Positions 30,606 to 31,483 are shown, numbered from the stretch's first letter. The stretch is 64,000 nt of DNA from an uncultured Gammaproteobacteria bacterium (GCA_964628855.1 CAZVMV010000002.1:11442-75441); one strand, 5' to 3'. Numbers and translations are program-made. The notes: generated by a model not told the origin, from the sequence alone.

Positions 30606-30962
30606 TTAGGTCGTGACCTTGTTGGTCTGCGTGACGACGAAGATGACGATGGCCCAAGCCAGCAAAATGACGATTAAACCGATGACAGCTGCAGAGATGA
30701 TTTTCTTGGCACCCGCGACTTTCTCTTCGTTGCCGCCGGCGGTCATCCACTGGAAACCACCGATCAGGATCATGACGACTGCGACTAAGCCCAGGAATCC
30801 GAGAGCCCACTGTACGATCTTAATGACCGTTGATTCGAGGTCAGCCGTACCCAACGTCAAGGTTGAGCCCAGGTTCGGGTCGACAGTTACTGCAGATGCG
30901 ACAAAAGGCATGGCGACTGCCGCGATAGTTAATAAACCGGCAAATAAAGTTTTCTTGTTCAT
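30606..30962 (-). CDS. Small TrbC/VirB2-like (T4SS-pilin-like) membrane protein, paralog 1
   Basis: 118 aa. Signal peptide (..FVASA|V), then two TM helices around ILIGGFQWMTAGGNEEKVAGAKKII. Strong SD (aagggggtga) and its own consensus promoter. Confidence 0.6.
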   Translation of the reverse strand: MNKKTLFAGLLTIAAVAMPFVASAVTVDPNLGSTLTLGTADLESTVIKIVQWALGFLGLVAVVMILIGGFQWMTAGGNEEKVAGAKKIISAAVIGLIVILLAWAIVIFVVTQTNKVTT

Positions 30963-31036
30963 TCAATTCTCACCCCCTTTCAATCTAAAGATACGTGATT
31001 GTATCTAATATTAGTGCTCAGACTGAAACTGACCGT

Positions 31037-31065
31037 ATTATACCCCAATTTACTCCAATTGTCAA
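31037..31065 (-). promoter_or_regulatory. Consensus sigma70-type promoter for the 118-aa pilin-like gene
   Basis: The minus strand reads TTGACA (31065-31060), a 17-nt spacer, then TATAAT (31042-31037). Both hexamers are perfect. Confidence 0.6.
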
Positions 31066-31072
31066 ACAGTAT

Positions 31073-31483
31073 TTATAATTTTTTCTGGACTTCCTCGAAT
31101 ATGAATTTCAGCACAGAATAACTTAATGTAATCACGAGGATGCCAAGAATGGCCCAGATCAAGGTGTCTTTCGCCTTCTTTACCATGTTCGGATTCCCGG
31201 CCGAGATCAGGAATTCGAAACCTCCCAGGATAACCATAAACAGGGCAAAGATATCCACTGCCGCCAGTATTATTTGTAACACCCGCAAGACTACCTTGAC
31301 CAGATTGATGTCGTTTGATCCCAGGGGGTTTGGCAATGATGGCGTGCCGGTCGAAGTGCCGGTGTTCGTGGCATTGGTCCCAACATCTCCAGCCTGAGCC
31401 TGGAGCGGGAGCAACAGTACTGACGCCGACCACAATATGGTCATGGTAATGACAGCGATGAGGAGCAGGATATTTTTTTTCAT
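31073..31483 (-). CDS. Small TrbC/VirB2-like (T4SS-pilin-like) membrane protein, paralog 2
   Basis: 136 aa. Signal peptide, a T/G/N-rich linker, then VILGGFEFLISAGNPNMVKKAKDTLIWAILGILVI, the same two-helix motif as paralogs 1 and 3. Confidence 0.55.
   Translation of the reverse strand: MKKNILLLIAVITMTILWSASVLLLPLQAQAGDVGTNATNTGTSTGTPSLPNPLGSNDINLVKVVLRVLQIILAAVDIFALFMVILGGFEFLISAGNPNMVKKAKDTLIWAILGILVITLSYSVLKFIFEEVQKKL

Follow-up and report, generated by a model that had tools for sequence, protein, structure and literature searches.

Three tandem genes for small pilin-like proteins of a type IV secretion system (T4SS) kind, in a stretch of chromosome where no T4SS machinery was recognized, raise the question of what such pilins would build and with which partners. 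The stretch analysed here (CAZVMV010000002.1:11442-75441, assembly GCA_964628855.1; 64,000 nucleotides, hereafter the window) was assigned from its sequence to a chromosome of the Patescibacteria, near the Kerfeldbacteria (class ABY1), where it covers the region of dnaA and dnaN. Its closest loci lie in Patescibacteria and Kerfeldbacteria metagenome-assembled genomes (MAGs) that share the same synteny, and Table S1 of Quinonero-Coronel et al. (2025, PMC12102498, cited throughout from passages of the paper) places Kerfeldbacteria, Magasanikbacteria and related lineages in class ABY1. The pilin genes and their domains are:

30606-30962, minus strand: 118-aa PF18895 pilin, putative major subunit (open reading frame (ORF) call, Pfam)
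31073-31483, minus strand: 136-aa PF18895 pilin paralogue (ORF call, Pfam)
31531-33474, minus strand: 647-aa pilin fusion, with signal peptide, PF18895 hairpin and predicted Cys-rich ectodomain (ORF call, Pfam)
33076-33309, minus strand: residues ~56-133 of the 647-aa protein, its PF18895 pilin domain (Pfam, 30.4 bits; custom hidden Markov model (HMM))
31534-32991, minus strand: Cys-rich region of the 647-aa protein, residues 162-647, made of 6-Cys repeats

We lean towards reading these genes as the pilin module of a patescibacterial T4SS, with the 118-aa protein as putative major subunit, two putative minor ones of 136 and 647 aa, and machinery that would be encoded elsewhere in the genome.

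Family, topology and expression signals of the pilins

The three genes are consecutive and in tandem, with gaps of 47 and 110 bp. The preliminary description of this DNA had attributed the architecture of T4SS pilins to them, and this was borne out by the Pfam family PF18895 (T4SS_pilin), whose whole-protein HMM scores of 49.9 bits (118-aa), 29.6 bits (136-aa) and 30.4 bits (647-aa) all exceed the gathering score of 26.6 bits. The TrbC/VirB2 family named alongside it was not recovered, PF04956 giving no Pfam match for any of the three window pilins; both families occur together on 2 homologues of the 118-aa pilin. The NCBIfam model NF045849 was matched significantly, though below its cut-off, with E-values of 7.9e-8 (118-aa pilin) and 3.4e-5 (136-aa pilin). 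Homologues of the 118-aa pilin (n = 564), nearly all ~117 aa long with a PF18895 domain, come from Patescibacteria MAGs, and a tblastn search against plasmids gave no match. Alignment showed 26% and 36% identity to the 118-aa protein for its two paralogues, with G69, F70, G77, N78 and K86 (118-aa numbering) invariant in all three. The loop motif proposed earlier was therefore roughly right: these five residues hold, but the 647-aa protein has AGF in place of its "GGF" and the 136-aa one KD in place of its "KK". An antisense ORF of 131 aa (30613-31008, plus strand), recurring in 19 related loci, is most likely no gene, and looks conserved because it overlaps the conserved 118-aa pilin gene.

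In an AlphaFold2 model of the 118-aa pilin (59 sequences; mean predicted local distance difference test (pLDDT) 79), a signal-peptide helix (residues 3-23) precedes a hairpin of two helices (39-74 and 79-117), in agreement with the hydropathy segments, which likewise place a signal-peptide helix ahead of a hydrophobic hairpin. Each of the three pilins has an ordinary Sec leader with an Ala-x-Ala site, cleavage of the 118-aa pilin being predicted after VASA24, and a hydrophobic hairpin whose two helices are connected by a short loop rich in Lys; the N_methyl prepilin motif of Pfam is absent from all three. The exposed N-terminal segment is acidic in the 118-aa pilin and rich in Thr, Ser and Asn in the 136-aa one. 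By the positive-inside rule the pilin loop (NEEKVAGAKK in the 118-aa protein, with three lysines) would be cytoplasmic and both mature ends would face outward, and the Cys-rich tail of the 647-aa protein would therefore be extracellular.

Three expression signals accompany the 118-aa gene:

31065-31037, minus strand: promoter of the 118-aa gene, matching the sigma-70 consensus TTGACA-17-TATAAT at 12/12
30981-30970, minus strand: Shine-Dalgarno site GAAAGGGGGTGA, 7 nt upstream of the 118-aa ATG, invariant in 13 aligned loci
30575-30540, minus strand: intrinsic terminator downstream of the 118-aa gene, a hairpin (30575-30549) followed by TTTGTTTTT

A perfect promoter, a strong Shine-Dalgarno site and a strong terminator had been put forward in the preliminary description, and all three stood, promoter and terminator where it had placed them. 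The promoter is the sole 12/12 match within 64 kb, and allowing one mismatch yields 4 matches in the window against 0.35 expected; the terminator hairpin has 11 pairs, 9 of them G-C. Related loci (n = 79; Patescibacteria, Kerfeldbacteria, Magasanikbacteria and related MAGs) were drawn from a scan of species-representative genomes, their ORFs were called and searched with the pilin HMM, and the proteins were clustered. In the 57 orthologues of the conserved pilin gene that were scanned, the window's own among them, the promoter was 12/12 in 13 and 11/12 in 9 (22/57 together), at a similar distance to the start. Besides the promoter and the Shine-Dalgarno site, the 5' untranslated region of the gene has no conserved block in the 13 aligned loci, and an Rfam scan of the window gave no match. 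A GC-rich hairpin with a T-tract was found in 40/47 loci, mostly 20-32 nt past the last conserved pilin gene (10-66 nt overall), its stem sequences differing from locus to locus and co-varying. Because promoter, Shine-Dalgarno site and terminator are conserved across orthologous loci, they are not chance features. Three related loci (L007, L010 and L018) apparently have two tandem consensus-like promoters before the conserved pilin gene.

Identities between the window proteins and those of the three closest relatives were 96, 95 and 91% for the 118-aa pilin, 86-91% for GalU, 77-81% for PGI, 75-79% for the 136-aa pilin, 52-60% for DUF2079 and 45-54% for the Cys-rich region of the 647-aa protein. 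By this measure no gene of the locus is better conserved than that of the 118-aa pilin, and no part evolves faster than the Cys-rich region. This protein conservation, with that of the three signals, gives comparative support to the 118-aa gene as a putative highly expressed major subunit. Given a consensus promoter of its own, together with a strong Shine-Dalgarno site and a terminator, the 118-aa pilin would be made in large excess, as an abundant major subunit would be, its transcription presumably boosted by that additional promoter; on the same signals and conservation the 136-aa and 647-aa proteins would be minor subunits.

The Cys-rich fusions and the conserved gene block

The Cys-rich region of the 647-aa protein consists of ~10 repeats of GCC-x5-8-C-x6-9-C-x9-16-C-x5-7-C, with 67 Cys in the whole protein; its alignment combines invariant Cys columns with variable loops. 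It matched no Pfam family, and a fold search with the model of the 647-aa protein, which is of moderate quality (pLDDT 65; 70-88 in the Cys-rich part), found no PDB match. Homologues numbered 10 in a collection of 5.8e9 proteins, all of them pilin fusions with the same architecture, and 12 in an exhaustive HMMER search of 1.84e9 representatives, nearly all again pilin fusions of that architecture. An outward C-terminus carrying a fast-evolving Cys-rich ectodomain fits the earlier suggestion that the 647-aa protein is a decorated subunit, which would display a disulfide-knotted, rapidly diverging domain from a pilin-type anchor, probably for recognition of a host or ligand. Relatives encode giant proteins of 2769 aa (L032, 5182-13491), 3350 aa (L034, 9935-19987) and 1445 aa (L067, 2010-6347) whose opening ~130 residues are nearly those of the conserved, putative major pilin; beyond the pilin domain they are rich in Gly, Thr, Ala and Pro, contain many Cys and have no PDB sequence relative.

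The array is flanked by the following features:

35813-35785, minus strand: TTTACA-17-TATAAT site resembling a promoter (11/12, TG-extended), upstream of the GalU-like gene
34877-35761, minus strand: GalU-like nucleotidyltransferase, 294 aa, first gene of the block (Pfam NTP_transferase, 7.4e-36)
33484-34869, minus strand: 461-aa membrane-anchored homologue of family-1 sugar ATP-binding cassette (ABC) substrate-binding proteins (SBPs), directly upstream of the array
28548-30560, minus strand: DUF2079 polytopic membrane protein, 670 aa, downstream neighbour (Pfam DUF2079, 8.6e-56)

As the gaps between the GalU-like, 461-aa, 647-aa and 136-aa genes are short (7, 9 and 47 bp) and an 11/12 promoter lies upstream of the first, the sequence suggests that these four genes form one operon, probably started by the promoter at 35813-35785. 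Across the related loci the same order recurs, with a GalU-like gene, a gene of the 461-aa type, a long pilin fusion (245-670 aa), a 110-140-aa pilin, 1-3 pilins of ~117 aa and DUF2079, and the block from GalU to DUF2079 is conserved in ~40 species. Among the 45 arrays having upstream sequence, 40 adjoin the 461-aa type gene and 38 have GalU together with it, and DUF2079 is the next gene after 33 of 51 arrays. The related loci carry 2-13 pilin genes; Magasanikbacteria-like arrays, with 8-13, still begin with the GalU and 461-aa genes.

The 461-aa protein resembles many sugar-binding proteins of the PDB (phmmer, 4r9f, 9e-12) and matches a GanS-like NCBIfam model at 1.5e-18, below cut-off, and no permease or ATPase partner for it was found nearby. 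The real start of DUF2079 is probably the ATG at 30512 (MPRNEKMM...), because the listed start at 30560 overlaps the pilin terminator hairpin. Further on, three polytopic membrane proteins of 524, 418 and 539 aa (24089-28547, plus strand) are, like DUF2079, conserved beside the array. Of these, the 524- and 539-aa proteins are paralogues (hhalign 95%) and the 418-aa one matches GT87 weakly; the neighbouring polytopic proteins have weak profile links to DUF2079, with no confident family; they are possibly GT-C-type glycosyltransferases, as far as these sequence relationships go.

Elsewhere in the window, the chromosomal origin region lies at 3120-7581, with yidC and rnpA on the minus strand and dnaA (4824-6182) and dnaN on the plus strand. 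dnaA is ~24 kb from the pilin array; passages of PMC12102498 report that T4SS genes are often close to dnaA in other Patescibacteria classes. Other window genes include PBP1, RuvC, YebC, PGI and envelope genes (Pfam). A dense glycogen/alpha-glucan cluster (12913-21567, minus strand) holds a GalT-like gene, two starch-synthase-type GT5 and two GH57 genes, one GH15 gene and a kinase-like gene.

Assembly partners and rival explanations

Passages of PMC12102498 report VirB4 in 2,417 of 3,035 Patescibacteria assemblies (80%), and VirB2-like pilins (PF18895 or PF04956) in 1,948 VirB4-positive assemblies, near virB4 in only 1,135. They also describe 441 arrays with a mean identity of ~25%, an array being 2-11 pilin genes in tandem or with one non-pilin gene between; the three consecutive genes of the window, in a Patescibacteria host, form an array in this sense. 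In Ca. Southlakia epibionticum a pilin array inside the T4SS cluster is essential, according to passages of Wang et al. (2023, PMC10633639), a result repeated in a 2025 T4SS review. Tandem pilin paralogues, some away from machinery, are a published feature of Patescibacteria in the passages of both papers; as arrays away from virB4 are known in the phylum, the lack of machinery in a 64-kb window is to be expected and not anomalous. By extension from this literature, the phylum's T4SS of monoderm type (VirB4, VirB6, VirB3), presumably encoded elsewhere, would remove the window pilins from the membrane and polymerise them.

Several observations weigh against this T4SS pilin module. Pfam scans of ~60 ORFs of at least 110 aa in the 64-kb window found no VirB4, VirD4, VirB6 or relaxase family, as had been noted before, and neither another T4SS ATPase nor the VirB3 family. 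A dozen window ORFs, including the three polytopic membrane proteins, have no Pfam assignment, and a divergent VirB6-like protein among them is unlikely. No T4SS ATPase lies within 10 kb in any of the 79 related loci (0/79). All ORFs of at least 580 aa at these loci were listed and 10 were submitted to Pfam, including all 6 with a Walker A motif, which proved to be of housekeeping type (RecG, SMC, an ABC transporter, FtsH, IF-2 and a CarboxypepD_reg-domain protein); the other 4 submitted, none of them a T4SS ATPase, were PBP1, a PKD protein, NrdD and a beta-propeller protein. The pilin genes of this lineage are consistently unlinked from T4SS ATPases. A solo second copy of the conserved pilin, present in 8 related genomes (L013, L017, L021, L022, L024, L027, L031 and L047), likewise adjoins no T4SS, its fixed context by Pfam being DnaB, pilin, P-type cation ATPase and an AspRS-like gene (around position 10000); several of these genomes also have the GalU-SBP-array block, e.g. 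CP181398.1 (L008 and L013). The ~899-aa protein downstream of the solo pilin was considered as a VirB4 and discarded, Pfam assigning it to the P-type cation ATPases, followed by class II tRNA synthetases.

Similarity searches count on the same side. Against five annotated VirB2 proteins (plasmid virB2 genes), hhalign gave a colinear but weak match (probability 13.7%, E 0.002). Foldseek with the 118-aa model found nothing in the PDB at E <= 0.001, only generic helical hairpins, with the A. pernix conjugation pilus (8dfu) at rank 37 (E 4.4), and the pilin profile had 0 matches among PDB sequences; for so simple a hairpin, fold and PDB sequence searches are uninformative. Moreover, a C-terminal domain of 520 residues is hard to fit in a tightly packed pilus, unless it sits at the tip or occurs at low stoichiometry. 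Table S1 of PMC12102498, in the rows consulted, scores two Kerfeldbacteria assemblies as VirB4-positive and two as VirB4-negative.

The main alternative, judged less likely, dispenses with a T4SS pilus. The PF18895 hairpin would then be an abundant membrane module that anchors or organises surface proteins, acting with the GalU, SBP, DUF2079 and GT-C-like neighbours in envelope or surface-glycan biology. This role would account for the strict and deep linkage of the arrays to the SBP-like gene, GalU and DUF2079, although the GalU linkage may be plain synteny. The missing ATPases at the 79 loci, the pilin domain at the N-terminus of proteins of 1445-3350 aa, the weak direct similarity to VirB2 and the weak GT87 and DUF2079 relationships of the neighbouring membrane proteins argue in the same direction. 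So do the Kerfeldbacteria assemblies scored VirB4-negative in PMC12102498, but negative MAGs may be incomplete, and VirB4 is present in 80% of the Patescibacteria assemblies of that study. Against a T4SS-independent role stand also the family-level homology to T4SS pilins, the equivalent Saccharibacteria array, essential and inside a T4SS cluster (passages of PMC10633639), and the extreme conservation and very strong expression signals of the 118-aa gene, which suit a polymerising structural subunit. The data at hand do not separate a T4SS pilin module from a T4SS-independent anchor.

More speculatively, and in our view doubtful, the VirB2-like hairpin may have been uncoupled from the T4SS cluster in ABY1/Kerfeldbacteria and repurposed as a scaffold for surface display. 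The abundant conserved subunit would form the scaffold, paralogues on the same anchor would expose giant adhesins, or hypervariable domains knotted by disulfides, to host cells, and the SBP and a GalU-dependent glycan step would be obligatory partners.

The preliminary description had stated that no secretion machinery lies nearby, which holds for T4SS genes but not for type IV pilus genes:

44534-50792, plus strand: type IV pilus / type II secretion system (T2SS)-like cluster with PilB, PilC and pseudopilins (Pfam)

This cluster encodes PilB (T2SSE, 3.9e-125, 583 aa), PilC (T2SSF, 402 aa), N-methyl pseudopilins of 152, 192 and 163 aa and a 589-aa protein with no family assignment; the N_methyl genes are at 47479-49015. 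That its PilB/PilC machinery, 14 kb away, assembles the three pilins is highly improbable: the cluster has pilins of its own and is on the opposite strand, whereas the three pilins have ordinary Sec leaders with Ala-x-Ala sites and no N_methyl motif, and the two systems are unrelated. It is just as improbable that the pilins are small transporter subunits working with the adjacent SBP-like protein, as the conservation of that gene and an automatic Joint Genome Institute (JGI) name, "TRAP-type permease small subunit", on homologues P0080 and P0133 might suggest, since the pilins match no tripartite ATP-independent periplasmic (TRAP) or ABC permease family, have a cleavable signal peptide and two helices only, occur as 8-13 divergent paralogues with huge ectodomain fusions that are not transporter-like, and stand beside an SBP of the ABC sugar type and not of the TRAP type.

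Patescibacteria, which live attached to host cells, account for much of the bacterial diversity that is still uncultivated, and in the single species tested their T4SS and pilin array were essential (passages of PMC10633639). The 118-aa pilin, under strong purifying selection and with conserved high-expression signals, would be a candidate filament or scaffold, and the fast-evolving Cys-rich ectodomain anchored by a pilin would be a candidate determinant of host specificity. A functional linkage would make GalU and the SBP-like gene candidate partners in the biogenesis or modification of pilins in a monoderm; without one, the locus is one more case of a published array class. Should the surface-display scaffold be real, the locus would define a new surface-organelle module, and the Cys-rich repeat a new family of host-recognition domains.

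Comparison with known systems

Like VirB2 (Ti plasmid), TrbC (RP4) and TraA (F), the canonical pilins of conjugation, the window pilins are small and have a cleavable leader, a pair of hydrophobic helices and a short loop of basic character, and the weak colinear profile match to VirB2 in hhalign includes the G-x-x-W-M-x-x-G region. On the other hand, the canonical proteins belong to PF04956, which the window pilins, from a monoderm host, do not match; the annotated virB2 genes compared (n = 5) adjoin virB1, virB3 or virB4, whereas the window pilins adjoin none of these; and of cyclisation or other processing there is no sign here.

The T4SS VirB2 paralogues of Bartonella and Anaplasma, as cited in passages of PMC12102498, are divergent copies in a row, as at the window, and variation of their exposed part has been proposed to serve host interaction. 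These arrays are diderm, of mating-pair formation (MPF) type MPF_T, and encoded with their machinery, and at the window it is the fused Cys-rich domain that varies while the small pilin is very conserved.

The pilin-like protein Mbov_0395 / MMCAP2_0565 of a Mycoplasma integrative and conjugative element (ICE), modelled by NF045849, matches over the whole hairpin of the window pilins, although the scores are under the curated cut-off (31.9 against 40 bits). A wall-less or monoderm, MPF_FATA-type context is common to both, the patescibacterial VirB4 clade being related to that type (passages of PMC12102498); unlike the window pilins, the Mycoplasma protein is borne on an ICE and adjoins conjugation genes. 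The match of the small pilins hints at VirB2-like proteins in monoderm MPF_FATA-type systems; passages of PMC12102498 describe VirB2-like pilins as absent from MPF_FATA.

The arrays of other Patescibacteria are known from passages of Quinonero-Coronel et al. (2025, PMC12102498) and, for strain ML1 (SEML1_0006-0019), of PMC10633639. The window array is like them in its PF18895 family and its phylum, in being chromosomal and without a relaxase, and in the low mutual identity of its paralogues (26-36% here, against the reported mean of 25%). The high-expression cassette, the Cys-rich fusion and the GalU and SBP-like partners receive no mention in the passages of the two papers. Unlike the Ca. Southlakia epibionticum array, those of the window and of the 79 ABY1-type loci lie outside a T4SS cluster; the window array is part of a conserved GalU/SBP-like/array/DUF2079 block. 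Compared with the arrays in these passages, the window array further differs in that one paralogue is highly conserved across genera, with a consensus promoter and a terminator of its own, and another is fused to a Cys-rich domain seen in no other architecture.

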